From a phage: 40,867 nt of DNA. Below, piece by piece: positions 1,369-40,867 of the stretch. Positions within the stretch are counted from its first letter, which is position 1; each line of letters opens with the position of its first letter. Made by a program: the position numbers and the translations under genes. Below the pieces are notes generated by a model that searched no databases, was not told the origin of the DNA, and was given only the letters and a program-made list of their open reading frames with translations. The stretch is taken from sequence record PQ821741.1. One strand, written 5' to 3'.

Positions 1369-1737
1369 ATGGCTATGTCAAACATGACTTACAACAACGT
1401 TTTCGACCACGCTTACGAAATGCTGAAAGAAAACATCCGTTATGATGACATCCGCGACACTGATGACCTGCACGATGCTGTTCATATGGCTGCCGATAGC
1501 GCCGTTCCGCACTATTACAGTGACGTTTTCAGCGTAATGGCGAGCGAGGGCATTGACCTTGAGTTCGAAGACTCTGGCCTGATGCCGGACACCAAGGACG
1601 TAATCCGTATCCTGCAAGCTCGCATCTATGAGCAACTCACGATTGACCTCTGGGAAGACGCTGAGGACTTGCTGAACGAGTACCTTGAGGAAGTCGAAGA
1701 AGAGGAAGAGGAAGACTACGCAGAGGATGAAGAGTAA
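1369..1737 (+). CDS. 0.3: Ocr, DNA-mimic anti-restriction protein (gene 0.3)
   Basis: 122 aa, acidic C-terminus, N-terminus [27 protein letters not shown] as in T7 Ocr. Confidence 0.93.
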
Positions 1738-1877
1738 TGGTTAAATACGGTCTAACAAGAGAAATGCTCCAAACGTACCGCGTGGCTATGGCTTATGGTG
1801 CTTCTTTCGGGTACTGTATGGCACAATTAGCACAGACATACCGAGCACGTAAGGCGATGTACGGTAATAGTAAGTGA
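1737..1877 (+). CDS. 0.4: Gene 0.4-like small early protein (46 aa)
   Basis: ATG overlaps 0.3 stop (TAATG); [12 protein letters not shown]... resembles T7 gp0.4. Confidence 0.6.
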   Translation: MVKYGLTREMLQTYRVAMAYGASFGYCMAQLAQTYRARKAMYGNSK

Positions 1878-1925
1878 TAGGCTCAAGGTCGCTCCATGCG
1901 AGTGGCCTTTATGATTATCATTTAA
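1878..1925 (+). promoter_or_regulatory. RNase III hairpin (ggtcgct...gagtggccttt atgattat motif)
   Basis: T7-type RNase III site motif; second copy at 2288-2335 inside the duplication. Confidence 0.55.
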
Positions 1926-1991
1926 CATGCAATAGGACTAACACCATGAGTAATCTTCTGGTCACCTCCTAGGTCTAGGTGTATGCGCTCT

Positions 1992-2147
1992 ATGCCGGAC
2001 ACCAAGGACGTAATCCGTATCCTGCAAGCTCGCATCTATGAGCAACTCACGATTGACCTCTGGGAAGACGCTGAGGACTTGCTGAACGAGTACCTTGAGG
2101 AAGTCGAAGAAGAGGAAGAGGAAGACTACGCAGAGGATGAAGAGTAA
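1992..2147 (+). pseudogene. Ocr C-terminal fragment ORF created by the duplication (51 aa from internal Met)
   Basis: Identical to 3' 156 nt of gene 0.3; no convincing RBS. Confidence 0.4.
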
Positions 2148-2287
2148 TGGTTAAATACGGTCTAACAAGAGAAATGCTCCAAACGTACCGCGTGGCTATG
2201 GCTTATGGTGCTTCTTTCGGGTACTGTATGGCACAATTAGCACAGACATACCGAGCACGTAAGGCGATGTACGGTAATAGTAAGTGA
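2147..2287 (+). CDS. 0.4: Second identical copy of gene 0.4-like ORF
   Basis: Exact copy of 1737-1877 within the duplicated unit. Confidence 0.5.
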   Translation: MVKYGLTREMLQTYRVAMAYGASFGYCMAQLAQTYRARKAMYGNSK

Positions 2288-2355
2288 TAGGCTCAAGGTC
2301 GCTCCATGCGAGTGGCCTTTATGATTATCATTTAACATGCAATAGGACTAACACC

Positions 2356-2556
2356 ATGAGTAAACTTCTGGCAACCTCCAAAATCCAAGGCCAATGCACT
2401 GTAACGCTGCGTGAGTACTATCACGGGTCAATGGGATGCACCTATGTTGTGCGCTATGGCAAACAGGTCACACATTGGGTAAACCTGATTTTAGCGCAAG
2501 AGGAGTATCAAGCCTGTGTGATACACCAAGCAACATGTGCAGGTTGGAACGATTGA
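2356..2556 (+). CDS. Hypothetical early protein (66 aa)
   Basis: ATG after RNase III site; ORF MSKLLATSKIQGQC...; no T7 counterpart recognised. Confidence 0.5.
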   Translation: MSKLLATSKIQGQCTVTLREYYHGSMGCTYVVRYGKQVTHWVNLILAQEEYQACVIHQATCAGWND

Positions 2557-2644: not shown

Positions 2645-2779
2645 ATGCATATGCTTACTATCGGTCTGCTCACCGCTCTAGGTCTAGCTGTAGGCGCATC
2701 CTTTGGGAAGTCTTTGGGTGTAGCTGTAGGCGCTTACTTGGTGGCTTGTATCATCACGGGAGCACTACGCAAATGTTGA
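2645..2779 (+). CDS. 0.5: Gene 0.5-like small membrane protein
   Basis: [22 protein letters not shown]...; hydrophobic; RBS gaggga upstream. Confidence 0.65.
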
Positions 2780-2949
2780 AACATTACGTTATGCCTATCC
2801 ACACTTCCAACGGGGCAACCGTATGCACACCTGATGGGTTCGCAATGAAACAGCGAATCGAACGCCTTAAGCGTGAACTGCGCATCAACCGCAAGATTAA
2901 CAAGATAGGTTCCAGCTATGATCATAACGAACATAAAGGACACACTGAA

Positions 2950-4029
2950 ATGAACATTACCGACATCATGAACGCTATCGACGCAATCAAAGCACTTCCA
3001 ATCTGTGAACTTGACAAGCGTCAAGGTATGCTTATCGACTTACTGGTCGAGATGGTCAACAGCGAAACGTGTGATGGCGAGATAACCGAACTGAATCAGG
3101 CACTTGAGCATCAAGATTGGTGGACTACCTTGAAGTGTCTCACGGCTGACGCTGGGTTCAAGATGCTTGGTAATGGTCACTTCTCGGCTGCTTATAGTCA
3201 CCCGCTGCTGCCCAACAGAGTGATTAAGGTGGGCTTTAAGAAAGAGGATTCAGGCGCAGCCTATACCGCATTCTGCCGCATGTATCAGGGCCGTGCCGGT
3301 ATCCCTAACGTCTACGATGTGCAGCGCCACGCTGGATGCTATACGGTGGTACTCGATGCACTGAATGATTGCGAGCGTTTCAACAATGATGAACATTATA
3401 AATACGCTGAGATTGCAAGCGACATCATTGACTACAAATCAGATGCGCACGATGGGCTAACTGGATGGGATGGCGAGTTCGTCGAGACTTGTAAGCTAAT
3501 CCGCAAGTTCTTTGAGGGCATCGCTTCGTTCGACATGCACAGCGGGAACATCATGTTCAGTGACGATGATGTACCATACATTACCGACCCGGTATCATTC
3601 TCGCAGAAGAAAGATGGTGGCGCATTCAGCATTGACCCTGAGGAACTCATCAAGGAAGTCGAGGAGGTCGCACACCAGCGAGCAATCGACCGCGCTAAGG
3701 AACGTAAGGCACGTCATGTGGGTCGAGTGGAGGCACGTAAAGTAAAGCGCCGTAACCGTAAGGCACGTAAAGCACACCAAGAGAAGCACAAGCGAATGGT
3801 TGCTGCGTGGCGCATGGCTGAGCGTCAGGAACGACGCAACCACGAGGTAGCTGTAGATGTACTGGGAAGGACCAATAACGCTATGCTCTGGGTCAACATG
3901 CTCGCTATGGACTTTAAGGCTCTTGAGGAACGAATTGCGGCGAACTGGTTTCAAGCTGACCGGATGACTATCGCTAACGGTCTTCCGCTCAACATCGACA
4001 AGCAACTTGACGCAATGCTAATGGGCTGA
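2950..4029 (+). CDS. 0.7: Gene 0.7 serine/threonine protein kinase and host shut-off protein
   Basis: 359 aa from [23 protein letters not shown], matches T7 gp0.7; an in-frame upstream 0.6-like reading (from 2773) has no intervening stop. Confidence 0.88.
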
Positions 4030-7800: not shown

Positions 7801-8863
7801 AACAATGCCATTTAAAGCTGTGTCTTTCGTAGAGTCTGCCATTAAGAAAGCTCTGGACAACGCTGGGTATCTTATAGCCGACATCAAGTACGATGGTGTA
7901 CGCGGGAACATCTGCGTAGACAATACCGCTAACAGTTGCTGGCTCTCTCGTGTATCAAAAACGATTCCGGCGCTTTCTTACCTTAATGGGTTCGATACAC
8001 GTTGGCAGCGTCTACTAAAGGATGACCGTTGCTTCTACCCTGATGGCTTCATGCTGGATTGCGAACTTATGGTCAAGGGAGTGGACTTCAATACTGGCTC
8101 CGGCCTTCTGCGGACCAAGTGGCTCAACAAGAAGAACATGCAATTCGATATTGGCGGCCCATATGAATCGTGGGACGCGAGCATGAAGGGACTTCCTTTC
8201 GGCCTTGACCCGAACTTACTAACAGTCAAGCTGTACGCCATCCTTCCGCTGCACATCGTGGAGTCTGGAGAAGACTGTGACGTTATGACGTTGCTAATGC
8301 AGGAACACGTTAAGAACATGCTGCCTCTGCTACAGGAATACTTCCCTGAAATCGAATGGCAAGCGGCTGAGTCTTACGAGGTCTACGACATGGTTGAACT
8401 ACAGCAACTGTACGAGAAGAAGCGTGAAGAAGGTCATGAGGGTCTCATTGTGAAAGACCCGATGTGTATCTATAAGCGCGGCAAGAAGTCCGGCTGGTGG
8501 AAGATGAAGCCAGAGAATGAGGCCGATGGTGTCGTTGTGGGACTCAACTGGGGAACTCCCGGTCTTGCCAACGAGGGAAAGGTGATTGGCTTCGAGGTTC
8601 TCCTTGAGTCTGGTCGAGTGGTATCCGCCAACAACATCTCTCAGGCACTTATGGAGGAGTTCACTAAGACTGTAGCTGAGGCAAGCGGTTACACACTAAC
8701 AGGTGGACCCGTAGTAATTCAAGATGGTCAACCAAAGGTCAACCCTTACGAGGGCTGGGCGTGCCAGATTAGCTACATGGAGGAAACCCCAGACGGCTCT
8801 CTGCGTCACCCATCGTTCGTAATGTTCCGTGGCACCGAGGACAACCCTCAAGAGAAAATGTAA
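7790..8863 (+). CDS. 1.3: ATP-dependent DNA ligase
   Basis: 357 aa; KYDGVRG adenylation motif; C-terminus ...DGSLRHPSFVMFRGTEDNPQEKM as T7 ligase. Confidence 0.95.
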   Translation: MQIKTMPFKAVSFVESAIKKALDNAGYLIADIKYDGVRGNICVDNTANSCWLSRVSKTIPALSYLNGFDTRWQRLLKDDRCFYPDGFMLDCELMVKGVDFNTGSGLLRTKWLNKKNMQFDIGGPYESWDASMKGLPFGLDPNLLTVKLYAILPLHIVESGEDCDVMTLLMQEHVKNMLPLLQEYFPEIEWQAAESYEVYDMVELQQLYEKKREEGHEGLIVKDPMCIYKRGKKSGWWKMKPENEADGVVVGLNWGTPGLANEGKVIGFEVLLESGRVVSANNISQALMEEFTKTVAEASGYTLTGGPVVIQDGQPKVNPYEGWACQISYMEETPDGSLRHPSFVMFRGTEDNPQEKM

Positions 8864-8865
8864 AC

Positions 8866-8900
8866 ACACTGGCTCACCTTAGGGTGGGCCTTTCTGCGTT
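8866..8900 (+). terminator. Early terminator TE (rho-independent)
   Basis: ggctcacc-ttag-ggtgggcc hairpin followed by tttctgcgttt. Confidence 0.85.
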
Positions 8901-8923
8901 TAATACGACTCACTAAAGGAGGT
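8901..8923 (+). promoter_or_regulatory. T7 promoter phi1.5
   Basis: taatacgactcactaaaggaggt. Confidence 0.85.
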
Positions 8924-8930
8924 ACACACC

Positions 8931-9077
8931 ATGATGTACTTAATACCATTATTCATCCCTTACGAGGGCTGGGCGTGCCAGATTAGCTACATGGAGGAAA
9001 CCCCAGACGGCTCTCTGCGTCACCCATCGTTCGTAATGTTCCGTGGCACCGAGGACAACCCTCAAGAGAAAATGTAA
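8931..9077 (+). pseudogene. Chimeric ORF from the duplication: 9 N-terminal codons of the small gene fused in frame to the last 39 codons of ligase
   Basis: MMYLIPLFI + PYEGWACQISYMEETPDGSLRHPSFVMFRGTEDNPQEKM; has the native RBS ggagg. Confidence 0.6.
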
Positions 9078-9079
9078 AC

Positions 9080-9114
9080 ACACTGGCTCACCTTAGGGTG
9101 GGCCTTTCTGCGTT
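9080..9114 (+). terminator. Second copy of TE terminator (in duplication)
   Basis: Identical to 8866-8900. Confidence 0.8.
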
Positions 9115-9137
9115 TAATACGACTCACTAAAGGAGGT
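9115..9137 (+). promoter_or_regulatory. Second copy of phi1.5 promoter (in duplication)
   Basis: Identical to 8901-8923. Confidence 0.8.
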
Positions 9138-9144
9138 ACACACC

Positions 9145-9234
9145 ATGATGTACTTAATACCATTATTCATCGTCATCCTAGGATGCCTTGCGCTCACCTG
9201 TAGCGACGACGATATGCCAGATGGTCACGCTTAA
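9145..9234 (+). CDS. Small protein, gene 1.4/1.5-like (29 aa)
   Basis: MMYLIPLFIVILGCLALTCSDDDMPDGHA; RBS aggagg. Confidence 0.7.
   Translation: MMYLIPLFIVILGCLALTCSDDDMPDGHA

Positions 9235-10043: not shown

Positions 10044-10056
<13 letters not shown>
9520..10056 (+). CDS. 1.7: Gene 1.7 nucleotide kinase
   Basis: 178 aa; TGATG overlap with 1.6; matches T7 gp1.7. Confidence 0.85.
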
Positions 10057-10561
<505 letters not shown>

Positions 10562-14017: not shown

Positions 14018-14081
14018 TCGAGTCTTGGATGACTTCAAGTGCCCTTGTGGTAATTGGGACTGCGATGGGTATAAATATCAT

Positions 14082-14104
14082 TAATACGACTCACTAAAGG
14101 AGAC
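14082..14104 (+). promoter_or_regulatory. T7 promoter phi4.3
   Basis: taatacgactcactaaaggagac. Confidence 0.85.
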
Positions 14105-14111
14105 ACACACC

Positions 14112-14324
14112 ATGTTCAAACTGATTAAGAAATTAGGCCAACTGCTGGTCCGTATGTACAACGTGGAAGCCAAGCGTCTGAACGATGAGGCTCGTAAAGA
14201 GTCCACTCAGTCACGCGCTCTTGCTATTCGAGCCAACGAACTGGCTGACAGTGCATCCAATAAGGTTACAGAAGCTGCCCGTGTAGCCAACCAAGCCCAG
14301 CAACTTTCCAAATTCTTTGAGTAA
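14112..14324 (+). CDS. 4.3: Gene 4.3 protein
   Basis: 70 aa MFKLIKKLGQLLVRMYNVEAKRLNDEARKE... Confidence 0.85.
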   Translation: MFKLIKKLGQLLVRMYNVEAKRLNDEARKESTQSRALAIRANELADSASNKVTEAARVANQAQQLSKFFE

Positions 14325-15120: not shown

Positions 15121-17352
15121 ATGATCGTTTCTGACATCGAAGCTAACGCCCTCTTAGAGAGCGTCACTAAGTTCCACTGCGGGGTTATCTACGACTACTC
15201 TACCGCTGAGTACGTAAGCTACCGTCCGAGTGACTTCGGTGCGTATCTGGATGCGCTGGAAGCCGAGGTTGCACGAGGCGGTCTTATTGTGTTCCACAAC
15301 GGTCACAAGTATGACGTTCCTGCATTGACAAAACTGGCAAAGCTGCAATTGAACCGAGAGTTCCACATTCCTCGTGAGAACTGTATCGACACCCTTGTGC
15401 TGTCACGCTTGATTCACTCTAACCTCAAGGACACCGACATGGGTCTTCTGCGTTCCGGTAAACTTCCGGGTAAACGCTTTGGGTCTCACGCTTTGGAGGC
15501 GTGGGGTTATCGCTTAGGCGAGATGAAGGGTGAATACAAGGACGACTTTAAGCGTATGCTTGAAGAGCAGGGTGAAGAATACGTTGACGGAATGGAGTGG
15601 TGGAACTTCAACGAAGAGATGATGGCCTATAACGTTCAGGACGTTGTGGTCACTAAGGCTCTCCTTGAGAAATTACTGTCAGACAAGCACTATTTCCCTT
15701 TAGGTTTAGAGCACGTTAATTATGATTCTATAATCTTTTGGAAAGACTCTATCGAAGCTATTGATGTTGAACATAGAGCAGCTTGGTTGTTAGCTAAACA
15801 GGAGCGTAATGGTTTCCCATTTGACGCTAAGGCAATCGAGGAGTTGTACGTAGAGTTAGCTGCTCGCCGCTCTGAGTTGCTCCGCAAATTGACCGAAACG
15901 TTCGGCTCATGGTATCAGCCCAAAGGTGGCACCGAAATGTTCTGCCATCCGAGGACTGGTAAGCCACTGCCCAAATACCCTCGCATTAAGACACCTAAAG
16001 TTGGTGGTATCTTTAAGAAGCCTAAGAACAAGGCACAGCGAGAAGGCCGTGAGCCTTGCGAACTGGATACCCGCGAGTACGTTGCTGGTGCCCCTTACAC
16101 CCCAGTTGAGCATGTAGTGTTTAACCCATCGTCTCGTGACCACATCCAGAAGAAACTCCAAGAGGCTGGATGGGTCCCAACCAAGTACACCGATAAGGGT
16201 GCGCCTGTGGTGGACGATGAGGTACTCGAAGGAGTACGTGTAGATGACCCTGAGAAGCAAGCTGCAATCGACCTCATTAAAGAATACTTGATGATTCAGA
16301 AGCGAATCGGACAGTCTGCTGAGGGAGACAAGGCGTGGCTTCGTTACGTTGCCGATGATGGTAAGATTCACGGCTCTGTAAACCCTAACGGGGCAGTTAC
16401 TGGTCGCGCTACCCATGCTTTCCCCAACCTTGCGCAAATTCCGGGTGTGCGTTCACCTTATGGAGAGCAGTGTCGCGCTGCTTTTGGTGCTGAACATCAC
16501 CTAGACGGTATTACTGGTAAGCCTTGGGTTCAGGCGGGTATCGACGCATCCGGTCTGGAACTACGCTGCTTGGCCCACTTCATGGCTCGCTTTGATAACG
16601 GCGAGTACGCTCACGAGATTCTTAATGGAGACATCCACACTAAGAACCAGATGGCTGCCGACGCATCCGGTCTGGAACTACGCTGCTTGGCCCACTTCAT
16701 GGCTCGCTTTGATAACGGCGAGTACGCTCACGAGATTCTTAATGGAGACATCCACACTAAGAACCAGATGGCTGCCGAATTGCCTACCCGTGATAACGCC
16801 AAGACGTTCATCTATGGGTTCCTCTACGGTGCTGGCGATGAGAAGATTGGGCAGATTGTCGGTGCTGGTAAAGAGCGTGGTAAGGAACTCAAGAAGAAAT
16901 TCCTTGAGAACACCCCTGCGATTGCGGCACTCCGAGAGTCTATCCAACAGACACTTGTTGAGTCCTCTCAGTGGGTAGCTGGCGAACAGCGAGTCAAGTG
17001 GAAACGCCGCTGGATTAAAGGTCTGGATGGTCGCAAGGTACACGTTCGTAGTCCTCACGCTGCCCTGAATACCCTACTGCAATCCGCTGGTGCGCTCATC
17101 TGCAAACTGTGGATTATCAAGACCGAAGAGATGCTCGTAGAGAAAGGCTTGAAGCATGGCTGGGATGGGGACTTTGCGTACATGGCGTGGGTCCACGATG
17201 AAATCCAAGTGGGTTGTCGTACCGAAGAGATTGCTCAGGTGGTCATTGAGACAGCACAAGAAGCGATGCGCTGGGTTGGAGACCACTGGAACTTCCGGTG
17301 TCTTCTGGATACAGAAGGTAAGATGGGTCCTAATTGGGCCGTATGTCACTAA
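15121..17352 (+). CDS. 5: DNA polymerase (family A), carrying an internal 39-aa in-frame tandem duplication
   Basis: 743 aa against 704 in T7; otherwise near-identical to T7 gp5. Confidence 0.95.
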   Translation: MIVSDIEANALLESVTKFHCGVIYDYSTAEYVSYRPSDFGAYLDALEAEVARGGLIVFHNGHKYDVPALTKLAKLQLNREFHIPRENCIDTLVLSRLIHSNLKDTDMGLLRSGKLPGKRFGSHALEAWGYRLGEMKGEYKDDFKRMLEEQGEEYVDGMEWWNFNEEMMAYNVQDVVVTKALLEKLLSDKHYFPLGLEHVNYDSIIFWKDSIEAIDVEHRAAWLLAKQERNGFPFDAKAIEELYVELAARRSELLRKLTETFGSWYQPKGGTEMFCHPRTGKPLPKYPRIKTPKVGGIFKKPKNKAQREGREPCELDTREYVAGAPYTPVEHVVFNPSSRDHIQKKLQEAGWVPTKYTDKGAPVVDDEVLEGVRVDDPEKQAAIDLIKEYLMIQKRIGQSAEGDKAWLRYVADDGKIHGSVNPNGAVTGRATHAFPNLAQIPGVRSPYGEQCRAAFGAEHHLDGITGKPWVQAGIDASGLELRCLAHFMARFDNGEYAHEILNGDIHTKNQMAADASGLELRCLAHFMARFDNGEYAHEILNGDIHTKNQMAAELPTRDNAKTFIYGFLYGAGDEKIGQIVGAGKERGKELKKKFLENTPAIAALRESIQQTLVESSQWVAGEQRVKWKRRWIKGLDGRKVHVRSPHAALNTLLQSAGALICKLWIIKTEEMLVEKGLKHGWDGDFAYMAWVHDEIQVGCRTEEIAQVVIETAQEAMRWVGDHWNFRCLLDTEGKMGPNWAVCH
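16542..16775 (+). repeat. Exact in-frame tandem duplication, 117-bp unit (16542-16658 and 16659-16775)
   Basis: 120 nt identity at offset 117 with cga microhomology; encodes DASGLELRCLAHFMARFDNGEYAHEILNGDIHTKNQMAA twice. Confidence 0.95.
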
Positions 17353-17814
17353 TTCTAAAGGAGAAATTATTATGGCTATGACCAAGAAATTTAAAGTGTC
17401 CTTCGATGTTACCGCTAAGATGCCATCTGACGTTCAGGCAATCTTAGAGAAAGACATGCTACACCTGTGTAAGCAGGTTGGCTCCGGTGCTATCGTGCCA
17501 GATGGTAAACAGAAGGAAATGATTGTACAGTTCCTGACATATGGTTGGAGACCACTGGAACTTCCGGTGTCTTCTGGATACAGAAGGTAAGATGGGTCCT
17601 AATTGGGCCGTATGTCACTAATTCTAAAGGAGAAATTATTATGGCTATGACCAAGAAATTTAAAGTGTCCTTCGATGTTACCGCTAAGATGCCATCTGAC
17701 GTTCAGGCAATCTTAGAGAAAGACATGCTACACCTGTGTAAGCAGGTTGGCTCCGGTGCTATCGTGCCAGATGGTAAACAGAAGGAAATGATTGTACAGT
17801 TCCTGACATATGGT
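17277..17814 (+). repeat. Exact tandem duplication, 269-bp unit (17277-17545 and 17546-17814)
   Basis: 272 nt identity at offset 269 with ggt microhomology; spans gene 5 3' end, intergenic RBS and 5' 56 codons of gene 5.5. Confidence 0.95.
17372..17590 (+). pseudogene. Truncated gene 5.5 copy fused out of frame to a duplicated gene 5 tail (72 aa)
   Basis: First 56 codons identical to gene 5.5, then frame-shifted tail WRPLELPVSSGYRR*. Confidence 0.7.
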
Positions 17815-17940
17815 ATGGAAGGTGTGATGACGTTCGTAGTGCGTACAGCGTTTCGTGAGGCCATCAAGGACATGCACGAAGAGTATGCCGATAAGGACTC
17901 CTTCAAACTATCTCCTGCAACAGTACGGGAGGTGTTCTAA
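17641..17940 (+). CDS. 5.5: Gp5.5 (H-NS-binding protein)
   Basis: 99 aa MAMTKKFKVSFDVTAKM...SPATVREVF. Confidence 0.9.
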   Translation: MAMTKKFKVSFDVTAKMPSDVQAILEKDMLHLCKQVGSGAIVPDGKQKEMIVQFLTYGMEGVMTFVVRTAFREAIKDMHEEYADKDSFKLSPATVREVF

Positions 17941-35052: not shown

Positions 35053-35736
35053 ATGGCTAACGTAATTAAAACAGTTTTGACTTACCCGTTAGATGGCTCC
35101 ACTCGTGATTTTAATATCCCGTTTGAGTATCTAGCCCGTAAGTTCGTAGTGGTAACTCTTATTGGTGTAGACCGCAAGGTCCTTACGATTAATACAGACT
35201 ACCGTTTTGCTACTCGCACTACCATCTCATTAACCAAGGCTTGGGGTCCAGCGGATGGATATACTACCATCGAGTTGCGCCGAGTAACCTCAACTACCGA
35301 CCGATTGGTTGACTTTACAGATGGTTCAATCCTCCGTGCATATGACCTTAACGTGGCTCAGATTCAGACTATGCATGTGGCAGAAGAGGCACGTGACTTA
35401 ACTGCGGATACAATCGGTGTCAATAGTGACGGTCACTTGGATGCCCGTGGTCGTCGAATTGTGAACCTAGCGAACGCTGTAGATGATTATGATGCCATCA
35501 ACCTACGTCAGGTTAAGCTGTGGAACAATAGTGCGTATCAATCAGCCGTGAACGCGAAGACCTCTGAGACGAACGCTAAGACCTCTGAGACAAACGCCTT
35601 AACATACCGCAATTCTGCTGCTGCTAGTGCCACCGCTGCAAGCACTTCTGAGACGAACGCGAAGACCTCTGAGACGAACGCGAAGACCTCTGAGACGAAC
35701 GCGAAGACCTCTGAGATTACTGCGAAGTTCCTATAA
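35053..35736 (+). pseudogene. 17: Tail fibre gene 17, N-terminal part, ending at premature TAA
   Basis: MANVIKTVLTY...FNIPFEYLARKFVVVTLIGVDRKVLT... matches T7/T3 gp17 N-terminus; frame ends ...TSEITAKFL* at 35734-36. Confidence 0.85.
35556..35723 (+). repeat. 21-bp tandem repeats encoding the heptad TSETNAK (2 units, 42-bp spacer, 4 units)
   Basis: gaagacctctgagacgaacgc repeated; two adjacent units are nucleotide-identical. Confidence 0.85.
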
Positions 35737-35868
35737 GGATGCTGCTGCTTCAAGTGCCACTGCTTCTGCTGCTAGTGCAGCTACCTGTAAGGCAGTTGCT
35801 ATAAGGATGCTGCTGCTTCAAGTGCCACTGCTTCTGCTGCTAGTGCAGCTACCTCTAAGGCAGAGGCC
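35733..35868 (+). repeat. Imperfect 68-bp tandem repeat inside gene 17 (35733-35800 and 35801-35868)
   Basis: First ~55 nt identical, 3' ends differ; copy 1 is +1 relative to the gene frame and carries TAA/TAG/TAA stops. Confidence 0.85.
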
Positions 35869-36489
35869 GACCGCGCGGAGCTACGTGCAAACCAAGCAGG
35901 TGGAGCTAGGGTTATAAACGGAATCTATCCAGATTCTAGTGGAAGCGTAACACTCACTACTGATGACATCAAAGACCCATCTGGTGTTACCATAATGATG
36001 GCTGTTCGATCTATGATTGACGCTATCTTTCCTGTCGGTATTCGCATGGATTGGCCTCTCGCTTCCCTTCCCGATAATCCAACACTTGGTGTTAAGTTTC
36101 TTAGGTTGGATGGGTCTAGCTTTGATAAAACACAGTACCCCAAGCTGGCTGCCATATATCCGTCTGGAGTTTTGCCAGATTTACGTGGTGAGTTTATTCG
36201 TGGCTGGGATGACGGGCGCGGGGTTGATGGTGGGCGCGTTGTTTTAACTGGTCAGAGCCAATCAGTACAGCAGCATACTCATGGTCTAGCGATGGCATAC
36301 AGTTCAGAGAGCGGTTACAAGGACAAGCTAGGCGCTGGCCCTAACTCTGACATGATTCCGATTAAAGATATGATTAAAGTAACCACTTTTACTGGTTCTG
36401 GTGAGTATTACTTAAAGGCGAATGATTCAACAGGTGTTGAAACTCGCCCGCGCAACGTCGCATTTAACTTCATCGTGAGGGCCGCATAA
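35803..36489 (+). pseudogene. 17: Tail fibre gene 17, C-terminal part with tip 1 (in frame with N-terminal part but separated by stops)
   Basis: KDAAASSATASAASAATSKAEADRAE...GEFIRGWDDGRGVDGGR...TRPRNVAFNFIVRAA*; no own start or RBS. Confidence 0.8.
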
Positions 36490-36841
36490 TGACACAGGCA
36501 AAATTAAACAGTGAATTTATTGCCACAGTAGCGGGTGATATGAAGATTCTAGTGGAAGCGTAACACTCACTACTGATGACATCAAAGACCCATCTGGTGT
36601 TACCATAATGATGGCTGTTCGATCTATGATTGACGCTATCTTTCCTGTCGGTATTCGCATGGATTGGCCTCTCGCTTCCCTTCCCGATAATCCAACACTT
36701 GGTGTTAAGTTTCTTAGGTTGGATGGGTCTAGCTTTGATAAAACACAGTACCCCAAGCTGGCTGCCATATATCCGTCTGGAGTTTTGCCAGATTTACGTG
36801 GTGAGTTTATTCGTGGCTGGGATGACGGGCGCGGGGTTGAT
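35931..36841 (+). repeat. 298-bp exact direct repeat (35931-36228 and 36544-36841), period 613 bp
   Basis: Base-by-base identical; both copies encode ...DSSGSVTLTTDDIKDPSGVTIMMAVRSMIDAIFPVGIRMDW...GEFIRGWDDGRGVD. Confidence 0.95.
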
Positions 36842-37123
36842 AGAGGGCGCGGATTAATGAGTGCTCAGGGCGATGCCATTCGGAATATTACTGGTCGCAT
36901 TAGGGGCGGGTCATCTGGGTCTTATGGTAAAATCTTCCTGGATGAATCTAGTGGTGCTTTTTTCCCTTCCGGTGAGGATGGAGAACAGTTCCATCCTTCA
37001 TCGACACCTCTACCTTATGGGAGATACAACACTGTAGATTTTGATGCTAGCAGGGTAGTCCCAACTGCCGACGAAAACCGCCCAAGAAACGTTGCGTGGA
37101 ATATGATTGTGAGGGCATCGTAA
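36539..37123 (+). other. Promoterless, startless second tail-fibre C-terminal cassette (tip 2)
   Basis: Reading frame opens after TGA at 36536-38; shared 298-bp stem then divergent tip ...NRPRNVAWNMIVRAS*; no RBS; first ATG is the internal Met-Met at 36608. Confidence 0.75.
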
Positions 37124-40354: not shown

Positions 40355-40418
40355 GGTCTTCCTGACCGACTGATGGCTCACCGAGGGATTCAGCGGTATG
40401 ATTGCATCACACCACTTC

Positions 40419-40867
40419 ATCCCTATAGAGTCAAGTCCTAAGGTATACCCATAAAGAGCCTCTAATGGTCTATCCTAAGGTATATACCTAAAGATAGGCC
40501 ATCCTATCAGTGTCACCTAAAGAGGGTCTTAGAGATGGCCTAGGGAGTTCCTAGAGGGTCCTTTAAAATATACCATAAAAATCTGAGTGACTATCTCACA
40601 GTGTACGGACCTAAAGTTCCCCCATAGGGGTACCTAAAGCCCAGCCAATCACCTAAAGTCAACCTTCGGTTGACCTTGAGGGTCCCTAAGGGTTAGGGTT
40701 GACCCTTTGAGTGGGCCTTGGGTGTTACCTTGAGTGTCTCTCTGTGTCCCTATCTGTTACAGCCTCCTAAAGTATCCTCCTAAAGTATCCTCCTAAAGTC
40801 ACCTCCTAAAGTCATTCCTACCGTCTACAACCTAAAGACTACACCTAAAGACCCATCAAGTCAACGC
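40419..40867. repeat. Right copy of 449-bp direct repeat (wrap-around into the genome left end)
   Basis: Identical to 32-480 except one mismatch. Confidence 0.95.
40594..40751 (+). repeat. T7-type terminal repeat, right copy
   Basis: Identical to 207-364. Confidence 0.8.

Follow-up and report, generated by a model that had tools for sequence, protein, structure and literature searches.

The window that we analysed (the 40,867 nt of record PQ821741.1) is the genome of a T7-like phage (Teseptimavirus), and the nearest public records are 91-93% identical to it over 20 kb. Its early genes are in the same order as those of T7 (V01146): ocr (gene 0.3), gene 0.4, an RNase III hairpin, gene 0.5, gene 0.6, the gene 0.7 kinase, and the RNA polymerase. 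Compared to T7, this phage and many of its relatives have two additions between genes 0.4 and 0.5, namely a further hairpin and a 66-codon ORF. What sets the window apart from both T7 and the relatives is that the block formed by the 3' end of ocr, gene 0.4, and the hairpin is doubled.

All of the features that we describe in this region are on the forward (+) strand. The complete ocr ORF (1369-1737) encodes 122 amino acids and matches Pfam family PF08684 (E = 1.4e-62, 208.9 bits, where the gathering cut-off is 25 bits). It is followed by a homologue of gene 0.4 (46 amino acids, 1737-1877), whose start codon overlaps the stop codon of ocr (TAATG). The entry for the identical protein, which is found on nine metagenome contigs, has a precomputed match to PF26807 (Phage_T7_GP04), and tblastn aligns the protein to T7 gene 0.4 at 35% identity; our local copy of Pfam gave no match. 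The product of T7 gene 0.4 is reported to interact with FtsZ (PMC4944311) and to be sensed by a CapRel defence system (PMC13423816).

At the end of gene 0.4 is a hairpin (1871-1924) with two stems around an internal loop and a folding energy of -22.7 kcal/mol (z = -3.6). It is 85% identical to the resident hairpin just before gene 0.5 (2577-2631), which lies outside the duplication. The resident hairpin (placed at 2577-2628 as a feature) aligns with the hairpin that separates genes 0.4 and 0.5 in T7, and its sequence is nearly the same as in T7. Given the two stems, the internal loop, and the homology to this T7 site, we classify the hairpin at 1871-1924 as an R0.5-type site, and it is predicted to be cleaved by RNase III. 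Rfam has no family for this type of hairpin.

When we compared the window to itself, we found that 1582-1953 is identical to 1992-2363 (372 of 372 nt) at a spacing of 410 nt. The two copies are adjacent and head to tail, so this is a tandem segmental duplication. Copy 1 (1582-1991) consists of the 372 identical nucleotides and a 38-nt junction tail; copy 2 (1992-2401) runs unbroken into the intact 66-codon ORF (2356-2556). To the left of 1582 and 1992, the identity between the copies ends. The repeated sequence holds the last 156 nt of ocr (1582-1737), the 46-codon ORF, the hairpin, and the leader and the first 8 nt of the 66-codon ORF. As a result, the window has a second gene 0.4 (2147-2287, also in the list of ORFs) and a second R0.5-type hairpin (2281-2334), both identical to those of copy 1, which makes the resident hairpin the third of its type.

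Two partial genes come with the duplication. In copy 1, the 66-codon ORF is cut to a stump that begins at the ATG at 1946, reads MSNLLVTS, and ends with a stop codon at 1972. At the start of copy 2 is a free-standing ORF (1992-2147) for Ocr residues 72-122. This 51-residue fragment matches positions 70-101 of the Pfam ocr model (E = 6.7e-16, 59 bits), and its stop codon overlaps the start of the second gene 0.4 in the same way as for the first (TAATG). There is an alternative ATG at 1983, and AGGT or AGGTG motifs lie 8-10 nt upstream of both candidate start codons, so the fragment may be translated. On its own it is probably inert. The 410-nt period, the 372-bp identity, the contents of the unit, the truncated ORF, and the additional hairpin, gene 0.4, and Ocr fragment had all been described in a sequence-only reading of this DNA, and the coordinates given there hold.

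The 66-codon ORF itself lies immediately 3' of gene 0.4 in the single-copy contigs L007-L012 and L015, and tblastn finds it in 20 loci at 87-98% identity. More broadly, the side of the duplication that includes copy 2 (1992-2630) is collinear with the relatives at 98.1-98.3% identity.

The junction between the copies

The 38-nt tail of copy 1 (1954-1991) had been described as a mutated version of the corresponding part of copy 2, with around 60% identity. This holds for the beginning of the tail only. Compared to 2364-2401, the tail matches at 19 of 38 positions (50%) without gaps, or at about 26 of 40 if one gap is allowed, and the similarity is confined to the first 16 nt (13 of 16); over the last 22 nt, the match is no better than chance would give. 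By local alignment and a three-way comparison, 1954-1961 still follow the 66-codon ORF, while 1962-1988 fit gene 0.5 far better, and for those positions we rejected the idea of a mutated 66-codon ORF.

The gene 0.5 segment in question lies about 710 nt downstream (2665-2697, within the ORF at 2645-2779), and it is the tail's best local match elsewhere in the window. Positions 1957-1988 are an imperfect copy of it: 28 of 33 columns are identical (85%), and the differences are four substitutions and one missing base (TCTGGTCACCTC-CTAGGTCTAGGTGTATGCGC over TCTGCTCACCGCTCTAGGTCTAGCTGTAGGCGC; score 39). The 30-nt core of this alignment scores 34, as compared to 21.9 ± 2.1 for shuffled sequences, and none of 300 shuffles reached 34. 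The 20-mer at 1969-1988 matches 2678-2697 at 18 of 20 positions (expected number of such matches, 0.00). The apparent donor is the phage's own gene: the alleles of gene 0.5 from the other loci that we compared score at most 34 against the tail, so we rejected a foreign allele as the source.

The two donors share TCTG at 1957-1960. The last three nucleotides (TCT, 1989-1991) match neither donor, and codon 72 of ocr comes next. Across 1954-1988, 33 of 35 positions are identical to one of the two donors, which are the 66-codon ORF (at an offset of +410) and gene 0.5 (at +708 or +709), and none of 20,000 permutations equalled this. Because so many positions fit one donor or the other, and because the match to gene 0.5 exceeds that of shuffled sequences, the junction is a patchwork from two donors and not a decayed copy.

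The offsets are similar to the distance between the hairpins (705 nt), so the filler and gene 0.5 lie at similar distances from their respective hairpins. We looked for new elements created by the junction and found neither a sigma-70-type promoter nor a terminator on the forward strand nor an RNA in Rfam.

In microhomology-mediated tandem duplication, the joint has shared bases and no filler, but here it has a 38-nt patchwork. In a templated insertion, we would expect a nearby donor, which is present, and a faithful copy, which this is not. One known parallel is the complex template-switch junctions with templated insertions of the FoSTeS/MMBIR type (named in PMC3597517). As in those, there is a short insertion at the breakpoint that comes from a few hundred bases away, and TCTG is a possible 4-nt microhomology at the first switch. 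However, the inserted copy is just 85% identical to its donor, and FoSTeS/MMBIR was described for cellular replication and is not known to operate in the T7 replisome.

Related phages

Our comparison covered 40 related loci of the early region, which came from IMG/VR, Logan, ENA, and the phages in GenBank. All of them have one ocr C-terminus, no more than one homologue of gene 0.4, and no more than one 66-codon ORF, and direct repeats of at least 90 nt are absent from all 40. In the nine contigs that encode the identical 46-residue protein, ocr is followed by gene 0.4 and then (where the contig reaches that far) by the 66-codon ORF, each of them once. Alignments of related contigs to copy 1 break off at about 1961-1969, and for the closest contigs they resume at 1991-1992. 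Some records seemed to span the whole query, but these have an extra 285-nt gene instead of the repeat.

Neither a 36-mer nor a 20-mer from the junction was found in IMG/VR, and the 20-mer was also absent from the JGI metagenomes and the GTDB genomes. (The pattern ATGAGTAANCTTCTGGTCACC had zero occurrences in IMG/VR, and CTAGGTCTAGGTGTATGCGC had zero occurrences in IMG/VR, the JGI metagenomes, and the GTDB genomes.) The ORF that is created at the junction has no exact match on record. We also looked for the same phage without the duplication and did not find it; the closest contigs are 94-98% identical.

From these comparisons, the duplication is private to this sequence. It is also very recent, because the two copies are identical at 372 of 372 positions in a genome whose backbone has diverged from every relative by 2-7%. 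The sequence-only reading had allowed that relatives might conserve the arrangement as an ancestral state, but as all 40 related early regions are single-copy, it is not ancestral.

A related idea is that the lineage has long had two paralogous gene 0.4 cassettes and that the junction between them has decayed. The one point for this is the degenerate look of the junction. The perfect identity of the copies in a backbone that differs by 2-7% from that of any relative, the single-copy state of 40 of 40 related loci, and the fact that the decayed part copies gene 0.5 instead of the expected ORF all argue against it. We consider it refuted by the identity, the filler, and the relatives, and we give this idea a negligible probability.

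The backbone of the phage looks natural. Between its RNA polymerase and that of phage 3A_8767, there are 160 synonymous and 8 non-synonymous codon differences, and the other core genes show a similar bias. Because the codon differences are mostly synonymous, the divergence from the relatives appears to have evolved naturally, and the bias rules out random in silico mutation of the backbone.

This bears on another potential explanation, which is that the sequence was not read from any DNA molecule: if the genome was generated or edited by a computer, then the repeats and the blended junction could be by-products. The junction does blend the sequences that follow two R0.5-type hairpins, in nearly the same register (705 versus 708-709). 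The overlap between the ends of the record is near-identical instead of exact, and when we looked for exact matches to the RNA polymerase, the DNA polymerase, and the exonuclease, none of these proteins had a match on record. On the other hand, there is no positive evidence for this explanation, the divergence looks naturally evolved, and natural contigs encode exactly the same Ocr and gene 0.4 proteins. Generated eukaryotic sequence has been reported to be depleted in direct repeats (bioRxiv 10.64898/2026.01.17.700093), which gives no reason to expect the excess that we see. A computational origin is very unlikely, and generation by a language model in particular is supported by neither the literature that we consulted nor our data.

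Other tandem duplications

The window contains four other private tandem duplications. These have periods of 214 nt (8739-9171), 163 nt (10044-10372), 117 nt (16542-16778), and 269 nt (17274-17819). Each of them has microhomology at its joint: an imperfect 5 nt (TCAAC/TCATC) for the first and 3 nt for the others (ATG, CGA, and GGT, respectively). The early junction, with its 38-nt filler, is thus not as clean as these joints, as the sequence-only reading had pointed out. All four sites are single-copy in phage 3A_8767, and the sites with periods of 214 and 163 nt are also single-copy in Logan contig L042. At any one joint, the chance of 3 or more nt of microhomology is roughly 1/64. Since it is present at four joints, these duplications appear to have been made by a copying process that senses homology.

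Three of the four duplications cross a gene boundary and keep intact copies of the genes, and the 117-nt duplication is in frame. If we include the early duplication, then four of the five cross a gene boundary, the fifth is in frame, and there are no frameshifts (a rough chance of about 0.05). This hints at a filter for viability.

The 117-nt repeat lies in the DNA polymerase ORF (15121-17352) and doubles 39 residues (DASGLELRC...HTKNQMAA). The predicted polymerase has 743 amino acids, as compared to about 704-710 in the relatives. The doubled stretch covers what we take to be the catalytic motif A region of T7 gp5, and it is doubtful that the 743-residue polymerase is still functional.

The 214-nt duplication doubles a 34-nt element (8900-8933 and 9114-9147) that recurs at 14081-14114. 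This element is probably a phage promoter.

Short-homology tandem duplications are textbook events in phages. One explanation for the early duplication is that it is genuine and fixed, that it arose by microhomology-mediated or unequal recombination, and that the additional gene 0.4 and RNase III site are neutral or mildly useful. The short microhomology at the sister joints, the absence of frameshifts in five duplications, and the natural and mostly synonymous divergence of the backbone all fit with this, and the tail-fibre region shows natural-looking exchange of modules with P2/HK97-type fibre and tfa genes. There is also a precedent in phages, which is the amplification of dmd-tifA in T4 (PMC9391042).

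Several observations argue against a fixed duplication. It would require an unexplained high rate of duplication, or selection, to account for at least five unstable duplications in 40 kb with none in the relatives, and perfect 372-nt repeats should be readily lost in a recombination-proficient T7-type phage. The fibre gene is broken as written, the 39-residue repeat adjoins a catalytic motif of the polymerase, errors are concentrated at the junctions, and the two ends of the record disagree and are partly inverted. We view a fixed duplication as a real possibility, but we doubt that it is the explanation.

T7-type packaging cuts at specific sites and is not headful, so the constraint on genome size differs from that in T4. 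The T4 amplification is similar in that a head-to-tail repeat in the early region carries a small anti-host gene and is private to one lineage. The segmental amplification of dmd-tifA uses 6-10 bp of microhomology (PMC9391042), and the sister duplications in our window also have short microhomology. In contrast to T4, the early repeat has just two copies, with no ladder; its joint has a 38-nt filler instead of clean microhomology; and no selection is known.

Another explanation is that gene 0.4 or the processing site has been amplified under selection by a host factor, as in the "accordions" of T4 tifA or poxvirus K3L. The homologue of gene 0.4 is the only complete gene in the unit, the unit is in the anti-host early region, T4 provides a precedent (PMC9391042), and Gp0.4 is relevant to host defence, as it is reported to be sensed by a CapRel system (PMC13423816). 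However, there are only two copies, and we saw zero variation in copy number at this site among the relatives. The other duplications are at unrelated places, so they do not point to selection here, and if Gp0.4 triggers a defence system, then extra dosage could be costly. Overall, an adaptive amplification seems very unlikely.

Possible origin

We propose that the 410-nt duplication is a private and very recent product of illegitimate template switching, and that it is a feature of the sequenced molecule or of the assembly and not a stable, selected genotype. We consider this probable, although our confidence in it is modest. The polymerase would first have copied ocr, gene 0.4, and the RNase III hairpin and gone about 16 nt into the 66-codon ORF. 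At the shared TCTG, it would then have slipped onto gene 0.5, about 710 nt downstream, where about 30 nt were copied. A second switch, from gene 0.5 back to codon 72 of ocr, would have let copying go on. We infer this order of jumps from the junction. A weakness of this scheme is that a templated insertion is expected to be exact, while the filler is 85% identical to its donor.

We slightly favour a defect of the molecule or the assembly over a fixed feature of the phage because the record has at least four further duplications, its errors cluster at junctions, the tail-fibre gene is broken, and the ends are unpolished. The absence of the junction from the public collections that we searched is an indirect sign in the same direction. 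Substitutions and indels are concentrated at joints, both here and at the fibre repeat, while the genes are otherwise intact over about 38 kb. Two observations count against such an origin. First, microhomology at four junctions is expected from real recombination, and we know of no standard assembler error that yields it. Second, no reading frame is shifted by any of the five duplications (again, a chance of about 0.05).

Among artefacts, we considered chimeras from multiple displacement amplification (MDA). These arise by priming at 2-21 nt of complementary sequence and rearrange DNA over a few hundred bases, and over 85% of them are inversions with deletions (PMC1855051). The microhomology at the junctions, the short range of the rearrangements, and an inverted 37-mer at the start of the window are reminiscent of MDA. 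However, at least five direct duplications and one inversion is not the expected mix, as direct repeats dominate here and over 85% of MDA-type chimeras are inverted (PMC1855051). Also, random chimeras should not reach the consensus sequence. We therefore view MDA as a poor fit for the specific artefact.

Alternatively, this could be a wild T7-like phage that underwent a real burst of microhomology-mediated duplications, and its own polymerase, with the 39-residue repeat, might have caused them by switching templates. We think that this is very improbable. If it were true, then the doubled gene 0.4 and the additional RNase III site would be raw material for selection. If the whole set of duplications is real, then nature would have provided a system in which to study a raised rate of duplication in a T7-type replisome. 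The two-donor junction is a neat illustration of a double template switch.

Either way, this is an ordinary rearrangement or an assembly error, and nothing suggests a new function. If the duplication is physically present, then the dosage of gene 0.4 would be doubled, which could help or harm the phage. There would be a third R0.5-type hairpin, and the one added cut by RNase III would be expected to release a short extra mRNA with the ocr fragment and gene 0.4. The 8-codon stump and the probably inert Ocr fragment would be left behind, and recombination between the 372-nt repeats would tend to remove the duplication. Annotators should not call the second gene 0.4, the "Ocr-like" 51-residue protein, or the 8-codon ORF real until the reads have been checked.

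We also noticed irregularities in other parts of the window. As written, the tail-fibre gene is broken: its ORF runs from 35053 (region 35053-35863) to a stop codon at 35736, which falls in the first copy of a 68/69-nt repeat. There is an extra A before the first copy and a missing A after it, so the first copy is out of frame and these indels compensate for each other, and the copies differ at two bases. Perfect 21-nt repeats lie upstream of the 68/69-nt repeat (35647-35716). Farther along (region 35931-37123) are two alternative C-terminal modules for the fibre (collar-type), which share 308 nt at 99.4% identity (35931-36238 and 36544-36851). Next to the first module is a 55-nt remnant (MTQAKLNSEFIATVAGDMK) of a gene that comes after the fibre genes in P2/HK97-type phages, at the position of their tail-fibre assembly gene. 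The second module is orphaned, and it is separated from the first by the end of the first module and this remnant.

At the ends of the record, 38-480 is the same as 40425-40867 except for one mismatch (G/A at 54), so the record exceeds one genome unit. The first 37 nt are the reverse complement of 40384-40420, and all of the relatives have the orientation that is seen at the right end.

Finally, relative to T7 and N30, the window has a private deletion of about 209 nt (within 2773-4029) that removes the gene 0.6B region. The joint of this deletion is not found in IMG/VR or the JGI metagenomes. The deletion joins gene 0.6 and the gene 0.7 kinase in frame, which gives an ORF of 418 codons.
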